DNA of 60,389 bases, counting the filler, from Dugesia japonica (Eukaryota), in assembly GCA_001938525.1 (NCBI GenBank). It is 5 parts of 5 records of this genome, joined end to end, with 100 filler letters (N's around TTAATTAATTAA, not from the genome) between each part and the next. Parts side by side here need not be neighbours in the genome. Positions count along the whole stretch, not along the records: positions 51,346 to 60,389 come from MQRL01505024.1; 4 more parts are not named here. One strand, given 5' to 3'. Under the pieces are notes generated by a model, which saw only the letters and a list, made by a program, of their open reading frames with translations, searched no databases and had not been told where the DNA came from. How positions within the stretch are numbered: the first letter of the stretch is position 1; each line of letters opens with the position of its first letter. A program made the position numbers and the translations under genes. This document shows positions 30,622 through 60,389 of the stretch, piece by piece.

Positions 30622-33204
30622 TTAAAACCCAGAAAATTCTAATCTGCTTTTAAAAACATTTTCACATCCACTTTTAGAAGAAATTTTTACTTGCTCTTTT
30701 CCTCTTGCTCTTTGTGCAATCTTTGTTTTATACCATTTTTCTTTTCTCATTCTTTTCCTAAATACGATTTCAGCAGGGCTTTTCCCGATGGTTTTTAGTT
30801 TTCTAGCATTTATGGTAAATTCTATCTCTGGCAATCTAAGGTTTTCATTTCTTTAAGTGTCGCATTTATCATATCGCACATAGTTCTAAAATGTCTCTCG
30901 ATTTCTTCATTTGTGTTCTGATGGAATAGACTCAAACACATGAGGATAATTCCATGTTCAGCTGCAAAATCTTTCATTGATTAAAAATCAAATGCAAACA
31001 GCTTTAATTTCTCTCGGACAAATGAACTTTAATATCCACTTCTCCGTTTTTGCCTTCCGTTGGTATCTTCATCTTTTTTTGCGATTACTATCAAGGCTAT
31101 ATACTTATTGAATTTATCTATTATACCGAGAACATATATTTTTTTACCTCTTGTCTCCAGCAGTGGTCCGCATACATCTATAAATAACAGTTCAAACATT
31201 TCGGCTGGCTGTGTCTTTTTCGTTTCTTCCTTCGTTTTTGTTTTTAACATTTTAACTTTCTGGCATGTTATACAGCTTCAGATAACCTCTTGTACTTTGC
31301 TCCACAAATGTTTCGCGGTAAATTTATGCTTCGTTTACGCTGCTACCATTCCTGCTCCAGCATGATATAATAGATGGTGTATCCTCCTTATGGCCTCTTA
31401 TAATTTATCATTAGATATCCATGTTTCTTCATCATTTTCTTCAAAGTTTTCTTGCTTCTTTTGGAAATCTTCTGTATTTAACATCATTATTTTTACGTTT
31501 CCACTCTTGAGATCTTTATGCAAAATTTAAAATTGTTCGCATTTATTCTTTGACAACATATCCGCATTTGTGATCCTTTTCTATGTTCAAATTTTATATC
31601 TAAATTGCTCAAATAATCAATCCAAGTTTGAAACTGTGATGTGATTGGTTTCTTGTTATTTAGCATAAAAATGATAGCTTTATCGTCTGTTCTAAGCATA
31701 AATCTTTTTCCATATAAATAATATTTGAAATAAATAAAAAAGTAGTAAATAACGAGCAATTTGTTTTCGCGCAGTAATATATCCTTTCACATGACTCGTC
31801 ATTGTGTGTGCAATTACTCTTTCTTGCCCATTGTTGTCCCTTTGAGATAATACTGTCCTAATCGTGTCGAAACTCACATCTGTGTTCAAAATTAATCCTC
31901 TATTTATATCTGGAGAACATAATATTGGGTACATCATAAATGCTTCTTTCATTCTTTCAAAACTTCTAATTCGTTCGTCCATTCAATCTTCTTGTTACTC
32001 GACACTTGGCCTCTTCAATCTTCTTTTCTGGACTCATTGGTAGGCGATACGGGTTCATGTTGATTGGACTTCCTTAAGTGATTATTCAATGCTTTGTAAG
32101 TATGTGAATTCAGTGTTCCATTTATCTGCCATAAATACATCCTTATTATTTTGAAAAATCGCAGTGAATCTATGATCTTTGTTAATTTTTAGAATATCCA
32201 TTGCTTGTCTCAATCGTTCAACCGTATGTATCTACCTTCAAAACTTTCTCTTAATGTTGAAAAAACAATTCTCGAGGTTTAATGATGTCTACCATACACT
32301 TTTTTAGAAGACGATACCCAAAAATACTCTGAAATTACACTTCGCCAATTAAATCTGGCATAAATTTCTCTACTTTTATAAATGCTACTTCCTTGCACAT
32401 CTCTGAAACTACAACTTTGACACGCATCTTTCCAATCGTCTTCAATAAGATGTTATTCGCGCAATACAATCGTTCCTCACTTTTCTCTAACATTGTTTCT
32501 CCGAGTCTATTAAATCCTTTCATGCTCATCACATGTATTCTTGCTCCTGTATCTAACAAACAATCAATCTGTTTGTTCTTGATCATCACTGAAATGCTCG
32601 GTCTCACTTTCATCCTATCATATGAAACTTCTACGTTCTGCTTCTCTTTAATTGTTTCTATTATTTCTTCTTTGTTAACTTCCGCATCATTAAAACGTAC
32701 TCTTTTTAGGAATCTGTAAACCTTTTATCTCACTTTACTCGTCTCATTCCATTTATAGACCTCCTAAAGATAATCAAATAGTATTTCGAATAATGAATGG
32801 TTCCGACCAACTCCTCTACCGATGTAGCCTTTCATTTTGGGTATTCTCTTCTCGGATCTTCATTTCCTATTATGCTCTCAGAAAAAATCTCTTTATTCGC
32901 ATTATCATCCTTTTCTTGAATGGCATTGATTTGTTTTTGACCGCTTTTAAAATTGTATCTTCTGTCTTCTAGTCTTGGTTTATTAATTTTCGAATAACAT
33001 TCTTCCGCTTTGTGACACGGTCTTTTACATCTACTACATAAAATTTCTGTGCACATCCTTGTAATATAACCAATCGTACCAAACCCAAAATATTTTGGTG
33101 GTTTCTTGTCTGAATAATTTCTACTTAAATGCCATTTTTTGTGACAAGTTCAACATTCCACATGGGAATTTTCGGACACTCTCTTTTTGTATGCCCATAA
33201 CTTT
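30622..33204 (-). mobile_element. Ty3/gypsy remnant (gag Zn knuckles, protease, RNase H, integrase; RT mostly deleted)
   Basis: CSRCKRPCHKAEEC knuckle, CLLDTGA protease, LNTDVS/LRTDDKA RNase H, FELLFIDVCGPL integrase. Many frameshifts. Confidence 0.88.
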
Positions 33205-37705: not shown

Positions 37706-37903
37706 TGATCTCAACTCTAATTTTTGAAATTAAAACTAATTCAAATCATATTAAATTTTAAATTTAAATTAATTTAAAATTAAAAGTTTGTTAAATCTAA
37801 ATTTTACAAGAGAAAACATTAAAAAAANNTTTACAGTTTTAAAATATCTTATAAATAAACTTAATGCATTTTCTATCGTAAAAATCTTTAATATTTAACT
37901 AAC

Positions 37904-38794
37904 TTCCAATGGGCCCACAAAGGAAAAACCCGATCGCTTCAAAAATCATCAAATAACTAAAAGCCAAATTGAAATTCTTTTTTCCAACAATTTCAATAAC
38001 AACATCTGGCAGAAGACAACCAGACGGCGCATTAAATAATCCAATAATACTTGTCAGAAATACTATAAAATGGTATTCTTCAACAAATGGAAGTATTAAT
38101 ACCATAATTCCCGTAACTCCCAATGAAATACTGTAATTAAAAATGGCATTTGTAAATAAAAATTTGTTGATAATGCCGAATAGAATTCGACCTAATAAAT
38201 TCGAAATACCGAAAACCGATATGAGAAATGAATTCAATAAATTACTATTTCCTTTCGACTGTGAATAACGATTTAAGAACAACAATATTATCGATTGACC
38301 TCCATGAATACAAACATTATTTATTCCTAGAACAAAAAAGTTCAAATGATTGAAAATTTCAAATGCTGAAAACCAATATTTAATAATTATAAATAGTTGA
38401 TCTATTTTCGATTTGTTTTCGCAAGAATTTTCGTAATCTTTACTATTTTCATTTTCTAATAAATAAGATTGGTTTTCTTTTTCAAATGATTTTTTGATTG
38501 GAACAATGGAATTTTTACTAAATTTCAATTGGACTTCATTTGTGGAATTTTCTGAAGAAATACAAATGTTTAATGCGAAACCCACTACAAATAAATTCAT
38601 TGTGATTCCAACAACAATTAACAGACAGGATCGCCATCCATAAGTTCTGAGCAATATTTCTAGCATTATTGGATAAATAAATGTTCCCATTCCAACACCT
38701 GATACTGCTATTCCAACTGTTATACTACGCCATTTCTCAAAGCGTAAACTAACAACTGAAATTATTGGAATGTATGATAATCCTAAACCGACTC
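37904..38794 (-). CDS. Large internal exon of MFS monocarboxylate transporter (SLC16/MCT-like)
   Basis: Bounded by TTCAG| and |GTTAGT. Encodes GLGLSYIP...FEKWRSITVGIAVSGVGMG, YGWR and NLLGRILFG, the MCT family motifs. The 5' exons were not located. Confidence 0.9.
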
Positions 38795-41520
38795 CTGAAT
38801 TTGAATTGAATTAATTAATAATTTCAAATATTATTTGATGATGATAATAATGATACAAATAATACTACAGTCAATAAGAACACAGCTAACTTTACAAATA
38901 ATTAAAAGTACAACGTAAATAGGAAAACAAGAGTTTAATGAGTGACAACGAGCGATGCGAGAAGAAGGATTATGATGACACTGAAACGACAAAGTAAGGG
39001 AAGGAGCGAAAATGAGAAGAGTTTAAGTGAAGAAATAAATTACAAGATCAAAATAAGAGCAAGAAAAATAACGATTAAAGATAAAATTTAATCTAAAATA
39101 GAGAATTAATTATTTAAAGTAGAAACAGATTTATTTTATTAAATAACTAAATTATTTTCGAAAAGATATGATTTAATAATTCACTGAATCATTTAATTCC
39201 ACCAAAAACAAAAACTTAAAATTTACAGGTTCAGATTTTTGGAACAAAAAAGTCTTCGATGAAATCAATGATAGAAATCTAGAAAATCAAGTTTAGAATG
39301 TTAGGAGTATATTAATCTCTCCACCCTTAATTTTAGATGGTTTTTGTAGTATCCTGTTACATTAGCTGATCAGACTGTTCTAGTTTCTAAATTTGTTATG
39401 CTTGTAGTTGGGCTGTTTATGTTGAGACGTCTACGAAAATCCTTTTTCTCTATTATTATAGGGTATCTGTTAAATAAAACTTCAATAGTCAATGATATTC
39501 CTGCATGTCATTGCGCTGGTTTTTATGATAGATAGTTAACCCATGTGGATATAGTAGAATTTTAAAATTGGTTCGGTTTATAATTAGGATCTACTGTTAG
39601 GGGGAACATATTTTATTTTTCCGCGTAATTTATCCAAGCCTATCTAATAACCTGTTTTATTAGTTGAACTTTTCCCGGTTTAGTTTTATTTGACTTTATT
39701 GCATGGTAGTAACTAGATGCTTCCATTACACTTCCAAATTTTTATTTGAACTATCATCACTGTCATTGCTGTTATTTCGATTCATACGACTTTGACTGAA
39801 TCAAAATATTATGTTTTTTCCTTTTCTTTCTCATCTATTCAAATAAAAGTCTAATCTGCACTATTAATTCCAAGAAAAACAAGGAACCAAAATCAGCAAA
39901 ACTTTTCATTGATAACCTATTAAAGACCAATGTCACAAGGGCTTTTATTGTCAACAATCAATTTTGTACCTATCAATTATGGCTTTAACTCCTAAGCCCA
40001 ATCACAGTCTTTTCTGAGTATTGAATTATCAGTATCGGAACCAAATCTTGATAAACAAGTCAAAAGTGATTATGAAAAAATAGAAAGCAATATATCAAGC
40101 CAAAACAATGAATAACAAGCTAGTCTCCAACGTATGCATTGGCACCCAAATAAGTCAGTTATTACTACTTTAATTGAACCAATTAATTCTGCAATCAAGC
40201 ATTATGATCAAATAACCGCAACCTCAACAATAGCCGAACAAAACAATCAGGTAGGAAAATAATTGAGACTCAATCCCAACAAAGTTAAGTTAAAAATTTG
40301 GATCTAATCCAGGCAACAAGTAACTATATTAACTAAACAGTTATCCTAAAAAAACATTAACTATTTGATACAAAGGAAGTAACATTAAATTGATGTTTTT
40401 ATTTAAATGTATAAACGCATAATGGATGATATCCGATTATTGATGTTATGTATCTTTCATGACATAATAGTATTCTTATTATTGGAAACCTTAAGGTTTA
40501 GCCAGACAAAACCGCAATAAAAAACAATAAGTATGAAGCAAACTATAAGAATAAAAAAGAATACCCAAAGTGAAAAGCTGTGAATAAAGCTAACGAATTC
40601 CGAAACGGAACTTTGTCAGAAGAGGGAATAATTTATAAGGGTAGAACACTATGTAAAACAACTACAAGAAGGCAATAAATTAGCTAAATTTAGAAGCATA
40701 CAGAATAATGATAAAATATTACTAGATTAATGAGATTAACAATATTAAAGAACAATAATGAAATTATCAACACTCAATAAAAAGAACAAACACAAAATGC
40801 ACAAAAAATAATCATCAATCAACATATTGAATAAAATAAATGCCGAAAAGCATGAAGTGGTTACATGTAGAGTAATGGGAGTTGGTTATCTGAAGAAATA
40901 ATTGAATTAATTGTTACGGGAAATAATTAAAATAGTAGAGTAATTATAGTGATAACAATTGCAAAAACTATTAGCAAGTGAATACTCATAGAGACAAAAA
41001 TAATTTCTACTTAATTAAGCATTACCAAACAAAATTAATGAAAATTAACTGCAACAGTTAAGGAATAATAAAATAAATGGCGAGAAATTTCACATTACTC
41101 AGTTGACCTCATTTTATTGTATTCTAACCATTGGAATTTTATTTCTTATGATAAATTTCAGTCATGAAATCGTGAGAATTTTCGAACTTTGCGCACTGAG
41201 AATAACTATTATTTAAATGTTTTCATAGATGTTAATTTTCACACCGGAATCTAAACAATGCATTTTTCTATTAAATTTAAATTTATTTTTTTTATAAGCA
41301 TGTGAAATTTTAAAAACATATTATTTTCATTAATATTGTTATTATTATTAAAAAATGTTTTATTTATAACGTGTGAACTTTCACACCTCCGCACTGAACT
41401 TTTGCACCCTAAACTTTATAAATTTTTTTTTAAAATTCACATGAAAAACGATGAGCCTCAAATTATTTATTCCTCGTGTATACTTCATACTGTGAACATG
41501 AATTTTCTCATAATATATTA

Positions 41521-55700: not shown

Positions 55701-55920
55701 TTTTATAAATTAAATTTTGAAAGTATTTTATTTCACATATTATTTCACTCCTTTCTTCTATTAATGCTTCTAATTCCATTTCAAGACATTTATTTTCTTC
55801 TTTACTATTTCTTATTTTATTTTTGTTTTATATATTTCATAATTTTTTTTAATTGAGTATCAACATCATCAAGATAAAGAAAATGATCAAAAGCCTCCAT
55901 TTTAATATTTTTTATTTTAA

Positions 55921-56529
55921 TCATAACACCTCATTAATCATTTTAAAATTTAATGTAATCTTTTGAAATGAAAAATTACTAGTTAATATCTTTGGAAACT
56001 TATCTACTAATTTACTAAATTGAATTAATTTATTTATATGTCTAAATGAATAATTAATTTTTTTTTCAACTAAATAATTTTTAAAGTTTGAAATATTTTT
56101 ATATTTCGATTTTAACATTAAAAGTAATTTTCCTAAATTTGAATAACCAATTAAACCAATTTGATTACTTTTAGTTATTACTTCATCCCACTGATAAATA
56201 TTTTTTATAATTTCCTCTTTATTTATAATCTCAGGAATTTCATATGTTTGAAAATCTGGAAGTGGTTTGAAAGATTTTAAAAGTTCTTGGTTAAAACTTT
56301 CTGGTTTGGATTTGTGTTTTTCTTTCTTAGGAATTATTATTTGCTTAGGAATTATTTTCCGTGGTTTTCTTGGTTTGCTCCGCTGTTTAATATTTTCTTT
56401 TTCTTCAATCTCTGTTTTAATTAATATTAATTTTAATATGATTTCCTTATAAAGTTTTTCATGTCTTGAAATACCCTTTTCAAACAAATCTGAAATAGTA
56501 GAATCTAAACGATTTACAACCCTACGCAT
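55921..56529 (-). CDS. Hypothetical viral protein (202 aa), basic linker plus helical C-terminal domain
   Basis: Intact ORF co-oriented with the integrase and ATPase. Its C-terminus aligns by eye with 54083-54964. Confidence 0.75.
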   Translation of the reverse strand: MRRVVNRLDSTISDLFEKGISRHEKLYKEIILKLILIKTEIEEKENIKQRSKPRKPRKIIPKQIIIPKKEKHKSKPESFNQELLKSFKPLPDFQTYEIPEIINKEEIIKNIYQWDEVITKSNQIGLIGYSNLGKLLLMLKSKYKNISNFKNYLVEKKINYSFRHINKLIQFSKLVDKFPKILTSNFSFQKITLNFKMINEVL

Positions 56530-56564
56530 TTTTATTGTTTATTTATTTAATCATAACCTTCTTT

Positions 56565-57857
56565 TTATAATAATGTTTTTTGTAATTCATTAGAATAAAA
56601 TCTTCCCAATATTTTGTTGCCGTTAAGATTACTGATTTCAAAACTAAAAGGTTTTTGATGATAAATTTTAGTAATAATATAAATTCTTTTTGACCATTTA
56701 AATTTATAACCTTTAGGAAATGTTTTTCCAATTTTAGTAATTCTTACTCTATCTCCAATTTTAAACTTTAACTTTTTGGTGTAAGGTTTTTCAGATTTAA
56801 GAGAAATACTTTCTGAACTTTTTGTTGCTTCTTGAGGTGTATTGTTAATTGTTGAATGTTTTGTGTTATTGTAATCATTTACAATTTTATCTATTAAATC
56901 TTGAGTGATATCCTGATTTCCAACAGCAGCAAAATGGTGAAAAAGCTTACTTTTAAATGTTCTATTAAATCTTTCAATAACAACTGCTTTTCCTTGATTT
57001 AAAGTTGAATACATTTCAATATTATTATTTTTACAAAAAGATTTAAATTTTGAATTATAAAACTCTTTACCTTCATCAACCCATAATTTATTTAGAGTTC
57101 TAAAACTTTTAGCTAAAATTCTTTCAAATGCTTTTGTTATTGATACTCCAGTTTTATTTTTAGAAAGTTCGACAAAAGCTAATCTTGTGTAAAGATCTAT
57201 AACTGTTAATATTACATTTTTCCCTTTTCTTTCCACACCTTGAAATATTAAATCTGCAGACCAAATATCATCTTTATCATTTACAATTACTTTTCTGAAA
57301 TGTTTTGGTTTTCTATATTCTTTATGAAGTTCTTTACTTTTTATAATATTTGCTTCAATCTCATCATCAGATTCTTCTTTTATAATTTTACTTTTTTTTA
57401 ATCCCTGGCCAATCATTATTTTACCTTTNNNNGCTAATTTTACAAGAGCTCTTTGAAATTTTTCTGTTAATGTTGGATTTTCAATATTATTCAAATCGTG
57501 TATTAAATTTACATCTGCAATATGTCTATCGCGGATATCTTCTGAATTATATGCAATATCATGTTTTAATGCTGCAGCATCAACTTGATTAATTGGTTCT
57601 TCACCTGGATTTGGTTCTTTATTTTCATTTAAACGAATATCTAATCTTGTTCCAGGACCAGTATAATTATGTTGAAATAAATGTCTTTCACCTGGATATT
57701 TTTTTGTTGTTATTGGTTTTAATAATGACGTTATTACACTTGAATTTTGTAAGTCACCTCCAGCTCGCTTACGCTCGCATATTTTTAAATGTCTAGCTTT
57801 ATTTTTCTTTAAAAGTATTTTACCACATTCTTCACATATAAAGTTTTTAGAGGACAT
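56565..57857 (-). CDS. Zn-finger / parvovirus-type phospholipase A2 / retroviral-like integrase fusion protein
   Basis: CEECGK...RHLKIC finger. PLA2: YTGPG Ca-loop, PINQVDAAALKHDIAY, RHIAD. Integrase: ELHK, WSADL, WVDEGKEFYN, IERFNRTFK, KFKIGDRVRI, GRFYSNELQK, typical of Polinton integrases. Confidence 0.93.
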   Translation of the reverse strand: MSSKNFICEECGKILLKKNKARHLKICERKRAGGDLQNSSVITSLLKPITTKKYPGERHLFQHNYTGPGTRLDIRLNENKEPNPGEEPINQVDAAALKHDIAYNSEDIRDRHIADVNLIHDLNNIENPTLTEKFQRALVKLXXKGKIMIGQGLKKSKIIKEESDDEIEANIIKSKELHKEYRKPKHFRKVIVNDKDDIWSADLIFQGVERKGKNVILTVIDLYTRLAFVELSKNKTGVSITKAFERILAKSFRTLNKLWVDEGKEFYNSKFKSFCKNNNIEMYSTLNQGKAVVIERFNRTFKSKLFHHFAAVGNQDITQDLIDKIVNDYNNTKHSTINNTPQEATKSSESISLKSEKPYTKKLKFKIGDRVRITKIGKTFPKGYKFKWSKRIYIITKIYHQKPFSFEISNLNGNKILGRFYSNELQKTLL

Positions 57858-57888
57858 TTATTATAATAAATAATTGCTTGTTAATCTT

Positions 57889-57942
57889 TAATATTTAAGA
57901 GGTAACATTTAACATTTAAGAGGTAATATTTTACATTTTTAC
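57889..57942. repeat. Short direct repeat (ATTTAAGAGGTAA x2) upstream of the integrase ORF
   Basis: Two ~21-bp tandem units in the MCP-integrase intergenic spacer. Confidence 0.6.
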
Positions 57943-57973
57943 CTAAAACAAGACCACTTTGTGATCATTTCTT

Positions 57974-59279
57974 TTATTTAATATCAACTCCTCTTACATT
58001 TTCAATCATGACAATTTTATTATTAGCTAATTTCATTTCTATATGTTTTTATTCAAGTATACACCAATAAACACTTCCTCTAAAATCTGGATCTTTATTT
58101 ATATGAAGTATTACATCAACATTATTAATGTTCATTTTATTATCATGAGCACTAACATCAAAACAAAATATTGGATATAAATTACTAAAATCTAAAAATG
58201 ACAATTGAGGTTCTGTAAAGAAATCACGACAACATTTTACATAATTCAAATAAGGATAAACCATTTCATTATTTTCTTTATTAAATTTACATTCATTAAT
58301 TGGATAAAAAGTATTATTTAATTGTATCTGCATAGATTTTAAATAAGAATGTTTTGGAACCTCTACATCTGGATTTCCTTCTTTGACTTTCTTGGTAGAT
58401 TTTTGTATAAATAAACTATTATTAATTTGATATGAAATTTCATTTTCTTTAAAACAAATTAAAATATATCTAGGTTGATATGCTAAACTACTAATTTTAA
58501 TTGAATAATATCCACCTGAATCTACATTTGATTTTGCAGTTATTCTATTTAAATATGAAACTTTAATAGGTTTATTTGTTACAATTCTTTCTAAAAGAGT
58601 TAATTTTGTTTTTGGTAATAATCTATATTCTGGAATGTGTAATTCAAGTGTAAAAAGTTTTAATGTTCCAGTTGCATCTTCATCTCCATAAAATAATAAT
58701 TTAGCAATCATTTGTCTATTACATCTAAACTCAATCATTGTATTATATAAAAGTCTATTATAATTTTGCATGAAACCAAATAAATTTCTTAATTGAAAAT
58801 AACCTTCAAATTTTTTACTTTCATAAAGTTTCTTTCTATAATAATATCCAAGATTATTTTTCCAACTTTTTACTTCAGTATCTCCTTTATTTATATCTGG
58901 TAACCAACCTGATATTTGTCCATATTCTTTTTTCCATATTTCAGTTGTGGTTATAAAATTTAACATTGTAGATATTACACCTGGATCATTTATAGTTTCT
59001 ACCCAAAGTTAATCTCATTGATTTAAATAAACTAGGTAAAAAGTTATTTTCTAATGTTATTTTATCTTTATCTTTATCTGGAATTGTAATTTCAATTCTA
59101 AAATATAACATTGAATTACAGATATCAAGTGGGTTTGTAGATTGAAGAGATTGAAATACAATATCACCACTTGGATTTAAATTATTTATTGATCCTGATG
59201 AAGGTGAAATTTTAAGGATATCATTTTTAATTGCTGTATGTGAAAATTCAATATTATTATCTAAATCCATTCCTGCCAT
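57974..59279 (-). pseudogene. Polinton/adintovirus major capsid protein (double jelly-roll), with one frameshift and a late premature stop
   Basis: N-terminal NLNPSGDIVF...LDICNSMLYF...LENNFLPSLFKSMRLTL. After a frameshift near 59000 it continues to QPRYILICF, IQLNNTFYP and FSNLYPIFCFDVS, about 435 aa in total. Confidence 0.88.
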
Positions 59280-59399
59280 TTTATAAAGATAAAAATTAAT
59301 ATTATACATAAAAAAGTATACCCCCCAGGGTTTTACTCGTAAATTACCTAATTCTTACATATATGCAGTTCGTGGGGTTATAATGTATTTTCAAAATTA

Positions 59400-60389
59400 A
59401 TTTTCCTTCTATAGATAACTTATATCGGATAGAATCCGGTCAAATTTGATATCGTGTAATTGAATGATAATTGAACTTTTGGAAGAATTTCATCCCAACA
59501 CTTCTCCTTTCCTCCAGATTTCAAAGATGTCTCTATCATATCTCTGACAATTCTAATTGAGCGTTCTGCTAAACCATTGGACATATGCAGAAATATGAAA
59601 TTTTGAAGCAAACTCTTGTAAAAAACCTTCATATATTGTAAATCCAGTTATTTAATAAGGCACTTTTGATCGTGTTTTCCTTTTGATTTGTAGTTCTAAT
59701 AAGACTAACTAACTTACTGAACTGATCAATTATGACTATCATGTTTTTATGCTGGATTTACTGTTATCCATATATGCAACATTTATCACGATTTGTTCCA
59801 TCGGTTTATTGCGTATCTTGTTATAAATTTGTCCTTAACATTTTCACTACTAAACTTCCTGTGCATACAAAAATGACATTCGCTGATAGCATTCTAAATA
59901 TCCGTAATCATATTCAGCCAGAAGAAATAATCAGATATATTTTGTTTTTTTTCTTTATTCTAACATGGCATAAATCTTTCTGTTCACAAAATTAGTTACC
60001 ATCTTTATTACTCATCTTTTGGGAACCATTATATTTTGCTCATCTTCTAACTTAATTAACAGCATATCGTCTTCAATTAAAAACATCTAAATATTTAAAA
60101 TACTGAGAGGTTTTTACCGTTTCTGATAATTTAACAGATTTGTCAATCAAACAAATTAGATTTCTTTAAATAATTCGTCTTCTTTAAATTTCTTTATGTA
60201 ATTGAGCGAATCACTTCTGAAAACGTTCATAATATTAAAAATATTTTACCTTAGACAATTTAGACTTGGCATTTTGTCTGGAATTGTGAACAATAACGAA
60301 AAGTCAGTCTTGACATACCATCAGCATTGAAATGATGATCCCCTTTTCTATACTTCAATACAAAATCATATTCTGATAACTCGTTTATC
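59400..60389 (-). pseudogene. Ty3/gypsy integrase remnant abutting the viral segment
   Basis: YRKGDHHFNADGMSR, a degenerate HHCC region and SNGLAERSIRIVRDMI...WDEILPKVQLSFN. Confidence 0.82.

Follow-up and report, generated by a model that had tools for sequence, protein, structure and literature searches.

The window, as we call the whole stretch of 60,389 nt from Dugesia japonica that was analysed, contains on its minus strand, from 57857 to 56565, a single open reading frame (ORF) of 430 aa that joins a zinc-finger-like module, a parvovirus-type PLA2 domain and a DDE integrase. This fusion gene is placed between a capsid gene and an A32-type ATPase gene, both of which are broken, and the surrounding eukaryotic scaffold is AT-rich and contains fragments of retrotransposons as well as an ORF for an MFS transporter. 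The features of the locus are as follows:

53316..53897, plus strand: gene of a predicted membrane protein, with an in-frame stop at 53418-53420 (ORF reading)
53953..54964, plus strand: ORF of ~311 aa, acidic at its start and with the 5' part apparently in another frame (no Pfam match above cut-off)
54961..55700, minus strand: gene of an A32-type packaging ATPase, containing one stop and one assembly gap (L028, a related locus, has a Pox_A32 protein that matches in BLASTP at E 2e-10)
55921..56538, minus strand: ORF of 205 aa following the fusion, without assignment to a known family (ORF scan; no Pfam match)
56565..57857, minus strand: PLA2-integrase ORF (ORF scan, Pfam, AlphaFold model)
56574..56777, minus strand: integrase C-terminal beta domain, aa 361-428 (end of the ORF)
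56820..57338, minus strand: integrase N-terminal helix and catalytic core, aa 174-346 (PF00665; D202, D261, E295)
57392..57399, minus strand: A-run at the site of the relatives' slippery heptamer (sequence)
57402..57410, minus strand: Gly-Gln-Gly, aa 150-152, where PLA2 ends, a candidate GX|G site (conservation)
57402..57701, minus strand: parvovirus-type PLA2 domain, aa 53-152 (PF08398 and conserved Ca-loop and catalytic columns)
57429..57432, no strand: four Ns, aa 142-143, last PLA2 helix (letters of the window)
57753..57761, minus strand: Gly-Gly-Asp, aa 33-35, candidate GG|X protease site ahead of PLA2 (conservation)
57777..57836, minus strand: Zn-finger-like module, C8-x2-C11...H23-x3-C27 (sequence; two strands and a helix in the AlphaFold model)
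58049..59274, minus strand: gene of the double-jelly-roll major capsid protein, broken into two frames near 59,010 (PF21738, E 6.8e-11)

Three genes that characterize Polinton/Maverick elements are present in the window: the rve-family DDE integrase, the double-jelly-roll major capsid gene (as a broken copy) and the A32-type ATPase gene, whose pieces gave no Pfam match of their own. No protein-primed DNA polymerase B was found among the window ORFs, and the copy is apparently cut near 59,320; the fused relatives L001 and L033 do carry this polymerase. Neither an adenain-type protease nor a minor capsid protein was identified among the window ORFs, while in L028 a protease lies just upstream of the fusion (E 4e-4). 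Long arms of terminal inverted repeats were not detected in 47,000-60,389, where there are assembly gaps and probable truncation. Pfam detects no Chromo domain in the window ORF, which terminates with the beta domain, and a chromodomain is present in one of the 120 best homologues. Because its integrase has no C-terminal chromodomain, we file the element as Polinton-type and not as an adintovirus in the strict sense of Buck et al. (2024). Taken jointly with the packaging, cleavage and frameshift steps proposed below, it is probable that the element is an endogenous Polinton/Maverick virus and the ORF its integrase gene, in a lineage that makes integrase as the tail of PLA2.

Further left, at 51,750-53,260, three diverged copies of a ~540-nt unit were observed that are coding in a 327-aa ORF (52329-53312) without Pfam match; this repeat region is possibly the left part of the element. 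Retrotransposon fragments comprising integrase Zn-binding and core parts and an aspartic protease are located at 59420-59647, 43232-44397 and 32335-33149; the one at 59,420, identified by its motif only, borders directly on the element end. The window also contains a host MFS transporter ORF at 37899-38810 (minus strand, E 4.8e-17), a weak match to an Ulp1-type protease at 45132-45644 (plus strand, E 4e-4) and, at 51291-51302 within an N gap, a 12-base palindromic filler which is an assembly artefact.

The original prediction had proposed that one 430-aa frame carries a Zn finger, a PLA2 domain and a DDE integrase with all catalytic residues intact, and both points were borne out. The chance of an open frame this long is ~5e-20 at the local base composition, and a frame check of 56565-57857 revealed no open frame on the plus strand. 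When the PLA2 and integrase parts were checked separately against profiles, both were found above cut-off: PF08398 matches aa 59-124 with 37.3 bits (E 3.3e-9, cut-off 23.9) and PF00665 (rve) aa 196-282 with 35.2 bits (E 1.6e-8, cut-off 32.6). The PLA2 domain comprises YTGPG at 65-69 (Ca loop YxGxG), H99-D100, Y103 and D115; in an alignment of the 120 best homologues H99 is conserved in 118/118 occupied rows and Y103 and D115 in 119/119. The integrase triad is conserved likewise, with D202 and D261 in all 120 homologues and E295 in 119 of them. At 20 conserved PLA2 columns the window protein shows 0 departures. At 25 conserved columns of the integrase C-terminal domain it shows 7, where the maximum among 104 homologues is 5; this domain is unusually diverged in the window copy.

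The AlphaFold model of the protein, in which two codons are read as X, has a mean pLDDT of 87.6 and a pTM of 0.59, with low-confidence joints between the modules at aa 32-34 and 152-158. In Foldseek the whole model gave foamy virus integrase as top match (E 2.4e-13); against PDB and BFVD it returned integrases only, which is not evidence against the PLA2 part. A phmmer search of the PLA2 part against PDB gave nothing significant, AAV VP1 matching at E 0.42 or higher. For the modelled PLA2 domain of the relative L045, 42% identical to that of the window, the best match was rice PLA2 (Z 8.1, rmsd 3.5, 88 aligned), and bee PLA2 reached Z 6.2, values in a range common for helical bundles; the likeness to rice PLA2 is suggestive only. 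A viral-contig scan with the window protein as single query gave no match.

Among the 120 homologues the Zn finger is of C2H2/C2HC type in 12 and of C4 type in 8; it is an optional N-terminal module of the PLA2-integrase family. The PLA2 domain itself is flanked by conserved glycine motifs. Ahead of it stands Gly-Gly-Asp (G in 90/103, G in 81/103 and D in 95/101 occupied rows), and at its end Gly-x-Gly, with G150 in 120/120 and G152 in 98/120 homologues. GG|X and GX|G are cleavage sites of the mavirus protease (PMC6048507, available part), and by analogy cleavage at GG|D and GX|G might release the domain. Yet separate PLA2X genes close their PLA2 domain with Lys..Gly-x-Gly as well, as in the window ORF, and thus Gly-x-Gly may be structural. 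For the MIGQG site proposed earlier, relevance of the strict adenain consensus is not supported: its Met occurs in 1/120 homologues, and the conserved part is Lys146 together with Gly-x-Gly, Lys being found at P4 in 83/120.

The four Ns had been assigned to the linker, while they actually fall into the last PLA2 helix. The length of the homologues is constant at this position (119-120 of 120 rows are occupied), and for three DNA runs no indel at 10% share is listed inside the ORF. Shortly behind the Gly-Gln-Gly lies the A-run; the ORF is AT-rich and has 7 in-frame heptamers, of which this is one. The sequence downstream of it forms no predicted stimulatory hairpin (z -0.47), and the -1 frame closes at once, the integrase continuing in frame. 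The window gene is consequently not regarded as a programmed -1 frameshift site, with the heptamer present, the integrase in frame and no hairpin, and we read its A-run as incidental or vestigial.

To place this copy within its host, three DNA runs from three studies were used. Each provided ~17,000 contig records matching 56,300-59,400, most of them 90-95% alike, and the summed depth, which is not copy number, was far higher over the capsid and fusion genes than at both ends. The element is a large, high-copy family of diverged copies in its host, and the shared part ends near 59,320. None of the listed contigs covers the stretch in full. In one paralogous contig 72 linker bases are replaced by 24 with the frame kept. 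The 205-aa ORF has low depth over its covered part (56,300-56,507) amid high-copy neighbours, and thus may be a variable gene of the subfamily.

That the fusion ORF is open while its neighbours are broken could be taken as a sign of special retention. The breaks in the capsid, ATPase and membrane-protein genes were confirmed, but the retention was not: three breaks in ~5.3 kb correspond to ~0.56 breaks per kb, and at this rate a 1.3-kb gene remains open with P ~0.48, so the open frame needs no special explanation. Among the differences from the majority of paralogous depth inside the ORF, 9 of the 16 displayed (drawn from the 40 best-supported of 214 differing sites) fall on first or second codon positions, near the proportion expected under neutrality. 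Together with the 7/25 departures in the C-terminal domain this makes the copy look old, and it is probably an ageing member of the high-copy family. From one RNA run came 46 partial reads, none of them 99% alike and most in the sense orientation of the gene; they are no evidence of expression of this copy.

Beyond this host, a protein search with the window ORF gave 685 matches. Both Pfam domains, PLA2 and rve, are present in 102 of the best 120 of these homologues (37-52% identity; the length filter of the search favours fused forms); one of these comes from the coral Oculina patagonica. The PLA2-integrase fusion is a common trait of the family and had already been labelled in a published supplement (PMC11071296, examined part), and consequently the suspected novelty of the fusion has to be given up. 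The linker between PLA2 and integrase comprises 10 aa or fewer in 41 of 113 fusions, with a minimum of 3.

An integrase tree was computed by a quick method from 153 rows; it covers 37 of the 102 aligned fused proteins and omits 39 near-duplicate loci. The window falls into a 33-row clade of in-frame fusions (SH-aLRT 100), which is nested in an 80-row clade (SH-aLRT 95) with all fused rows and 12 of the 13 rows labelled -1; L063 wrongly carries the label +1 in the tree, as its junction is -1. This PLA2-linked clade is sister to a clade with a separate PLA2X gene (SH-aLRT 99). The -1 label undergoes 7 changes on the tree, at least 4 of which are forced by well-supported branches. Switches between the fused and the frameshifted state, in whichever direction, thus probably took place more than once. 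Polinton-type integrases were also seen in 79 loci (L125-L203) whose genomes are catalogued under bacteria or archaea, with many of the loci in a single assembly; these are probably eukaryotic contigs binned by mistake.

The most informative relatives are those in which PLA2 and integrase are split. Among 35 PLA2-integrase junctions from the first 106 loci, 17 are one ORF, 13 are -1 (L063 counted twice), 3 are in frame with a stop and 2 are +1, and all five +1 or in-frame-stop junctions come from copies with further stops. An alternative genetic code was considered for loci with in-frame stops and rejected, since all three stop codons occur; these are decayed copies. For the overlap statistics, intact integrase ORFs and unique junctions from all loci were kept, a filter that dropped the degraded +1 and in-frame-stop copies. 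Overlapping PLA2-to-integrase ORFs are in the -1 frame in 14 of 14 cases, compared with 22 of 46 overlaps of other ORFs with the integrase. An in-frame X XXY YYZ heptamer is found in 12/14 against 4/46, and a Met ahead of the integrase start motif in 3/14 against 45/46. The corresponding Fisher P values of 3e-4 (frame), 1e-7 (heptamer) and 1e-8 (Met) are inflated, as the loci are related.

The split loci number 16, two of them truncated by contig ends; in 13, the first Met lies downstream of the first catalytic Asp, and thus an AUG-started product would be inactive. The heptamer lies close behind the conserved Gly-x-Gly, and 32-89 nt separate the PLA2 and integrase domains in 11 of 12 -1 loci. 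Four loci (L049, L050, L051 and L128) share an 11-bp stem, with a spacer of 6 nt after the heptamer in all four; 44/44 cells pair, three columns covary on both sides, and the loop ranges from 12 to 36 nt. A separate hairpin (z ~-4.7) occurs in L077, which belongs to a different integrase clade. Strong hairpins were predicted at 5 of the 14 folded junctions, pseudoknots being outside the folding model. L002 and L003 are without canonical heptamer, and the L002 junction looks like a small indel. Apart from these two, the split relatives combine the -1 overlap and the in-frame heptamer of a programmed frameshift site. Furthermore, a search for short PLA2-only proteins gave 1177 matches, in clusters of up to 2359 members; 108 of 117 such proteins end no more than 20 aa past Gly-x-Gly, and Lys-Lys/Asn follows directly after this motif in 109/117 of them, compared with 5/116 fused proteins. 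The frame statistics, the heptamer and the position of Met point to a candidate programmed -1 frameshift that would join PLA2 and integrase in the sister lineages.

Several other gene arrangements were seen among these loci. In L063:72-5983 a unit of ATPase, PLA2 and integrase is tandemly repeated, and two copies have an identical -1 junction. Fusions of an N-terminal adenain-like protease domain to the integrase were observed at L013:2740-4248, L043:4458-5957, L054:274-1803 and L056:128-1471, with Pfam support for the protease domain that is weak and limited to L043 and L056. In L043 a pX-like ORF overlaps the protease-integrase ORF in the -1 frame with an in-frame heptamer. On the minus strand of L005, L009, L010 and L011, PLA2X overlaps the protease ORF, in 3/4 cases in the -1 frame and with A-run heptamers, and the protease has its own Met; in L006:340-1371 and L012:471-1535 PLA2X and protease are fused in frame.

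How might these observations fit together? PLA2 would be an internal virion protein, and the N-terminal part of the fusion would tow the integrase into the particle. There, the virion protease could cut at GG|D and GX|G and yield a free Zn finger, PLA2 and integrase. After uptake PLA2 would breach the endosome, and the freed integrase might insert the incoming genome ahead of any viral gene expression. In the sister lineages a programmed -1 frameshift like that of retroviral Gag-Pol would set the ratio of PLA2 to integrase. In the lineage of the window the link is fixed in frame, and PLA2 and integrase would be made 1:1. Since a large clade lives with such a 1:1 fusion, dosage control is not essential. 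The simplest common reading would be that integrase is tied to a virion protein for packaging and then released by the protease, the frameshift setting the dose. Resting on sequence comparison and analogy, this explanation as a whole, from PLA2-tethered packaging over protease release to frameshift dosing in the sisters, appears probable to us. The wider proposal reaches a large Polinton branch with a Gag-Pol-like programme, in which PLA2 is abundant and integrase exists only as trans-frame PLA2-integrase that is packaged at a set ratio and freed by protease, with repeated switches between in-frame and frameshifted forms and with other lineages hitching integrase to protease; we rate it as moderately likely. 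The virion-packaged, protease-processed polyprotein of the original prediction thus keeps its plausibility, given the virion content of mavirus and the GG|D and GQ|G motifs that flank PLA2, while a strict adenain consensus is not followed. The candidate -1 frameshift link of the relatives had been overlooked, and it would explain the joining of the domains better than a coupling of membrane penetration to integration.

Such a direct coupling would be given if the fusion were functional but uncleaved, PLA2 tethering the integrase-genome complex to membranes of the endosome or the nuclear envelope. The very short linker in many fusions (10 aa or fewer in 41/113) speaks for it, as does the fact that the strict adenovirus P4 rule is not kept, Lys occupying P4 in 83/120. 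However, the mavirus protease requires GG|X or GX|G only (PMC6048507, available part), conserved glycine motifs stand on either side of PLA2, and the integrase is fused to a protease elsewhere, which argues for packaging and not for a lipase-specific role. We therefore consider an uncleaved fusion unlikely. It is likewise rather improbable that the split forms have no frameshift link at all, with an integrase start of its own (by non-AUG initiation, splicing or reinitiation) or homopolymer errors behind the overlaps, and with the fusion as mere gene compaction. A-runs are indeed error-prone, a Met precedes the first Asp in 3/16 split loci, and 9 of 14 folded junctions are without strong hairpin. 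Yet errors predict +1 shifts too, while the intact loci are -1 in 14/14, and a covarying stem recurs at fixed spacing. The short PLA2 product also recurs, in clusters of up to 2359 members, and the 32-89 nt between the domains in 11/12 -1 loci leave little room for an intron.

Two further alternatives concern the window copy itself. Its in-frame state could be an accident of assembly or mutation at the Ns or the A-run: the A-run sits where the relatives slip, Lys-Lys after Gly-x-Gly is rare in fusions (5/116), and none of the listed contigs spans the whole stretch. Given that the window is nested in an all-fused clade, that no indel is listed inside the ORF and that the linker of a paralogous contig is shorter by a multiple of three, we regard such an accident as very unlikely. 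Still further from what we expect, and barely credible, is domestication of the gene by the host, which would account for an open frame beside broken neighbours and for the 0 departures at 20 conserved PLA2 columns. Chance alone would leave such a frame open in about half of the cases, the 9/16 displayed differences at first or second codon positions are near the neutral share, and no RNA reads are 99% alike.

The question addressed by these results is how Polintons bring integrase to the incoming genome and whether they form infectious particles in animals. If integrase is linked, covalently or by a frameshift, to a virion entry protein, this indirectly supports a transport of integrase in the particle. 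The in-frame fusion alone carries modest weight, being common and already labelled; the new part is the candidate -1 frameshift of the sister lineages. If it is true, public annotations of the split forms would show integrases without the first catalytic Asp, and such annotations would be corrected.

In retroviral Gag-Pol an upstream structural protein is joined to an enzyme that is encoded downstream in the -1 frame; the slippery heptamer is followed by a short spacer and a stem, and a protease releases the products. The split PLA2-integrase relatives differ in that they belong to a DNA virus with a lipase as upstream partner, and in that in-frame fusions occur in many lineages. For this virus group frameshifting had been suggested before. 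As far as the available part of PMC11071296 goes, Buck et al. (2024) predicted -1 frameshifts at adintovirus Penton ends and at Hexon-Adenain (section 16), and 'PLA2X-Adenain' labels stand alongside 'PLA2X' in the supplement; these are other gene pairs, and section 16 is without integrase, frame statistics or covariation. The term 'PLA2' is absent from the main text, but in supplementary file 2 proteins of Adinto15303 and Adinto6405 are labelled 'PLA2-Integrase' and have the in-frame architecture of the window ORF, to which the window protein adds the N-terminal Zn finger. Judged by eye, the Gly-Gly and PLA2 motifs of the window family can also be recognized at the visible start of Adinto6405. 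None of the 59 PLA2 labels in the examined part of this supplement denotes a PLA2-integrase frameshift isoform. Its entry for Adinto13074 has an 'Integrase' behind a short PLA2, and the Met with which this 'Integrase' begins lies, judged by motif, past the first catalytic Asp, as the frameshift reading predicts. In the consulted parts of the Polinton literature, mostly open-access and with Repbase outside the scope (including PMC3671162, PMC11296320, PMC11131425 and PMC8547959), we found no description of a PLA2-integrase frameshift.

Other known systems resemble individual parts of the window gene, according to the available portions of the respective reports. Mavirus virions contain an rve integrase and two hydrolase fragments with a GK|G site between them (Born 2018, PMC6048507), while in this virophage the genes are separate and an alpha/beta hydrolase takes the place of PLA2. 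PLA2 is reported to be common in group 2 Mavericks (10.64898/2026.06.19.733378), and the PLA2 domains of Polintons were proposed to be packaged for membrane entry (PMC4642659, PMC8502044). Alpha adintovirus PLA2X (Starrett 2021, PMC8502044) and insect Maverick CAP (Geisler 2018, PMC5803895; Yutin 2015, PMC4642659) share the PLA2 catalytic motifs with the window protein; in contrast, both are separate genes with a pX-like tail, and in the window the integrase replaces that tail.
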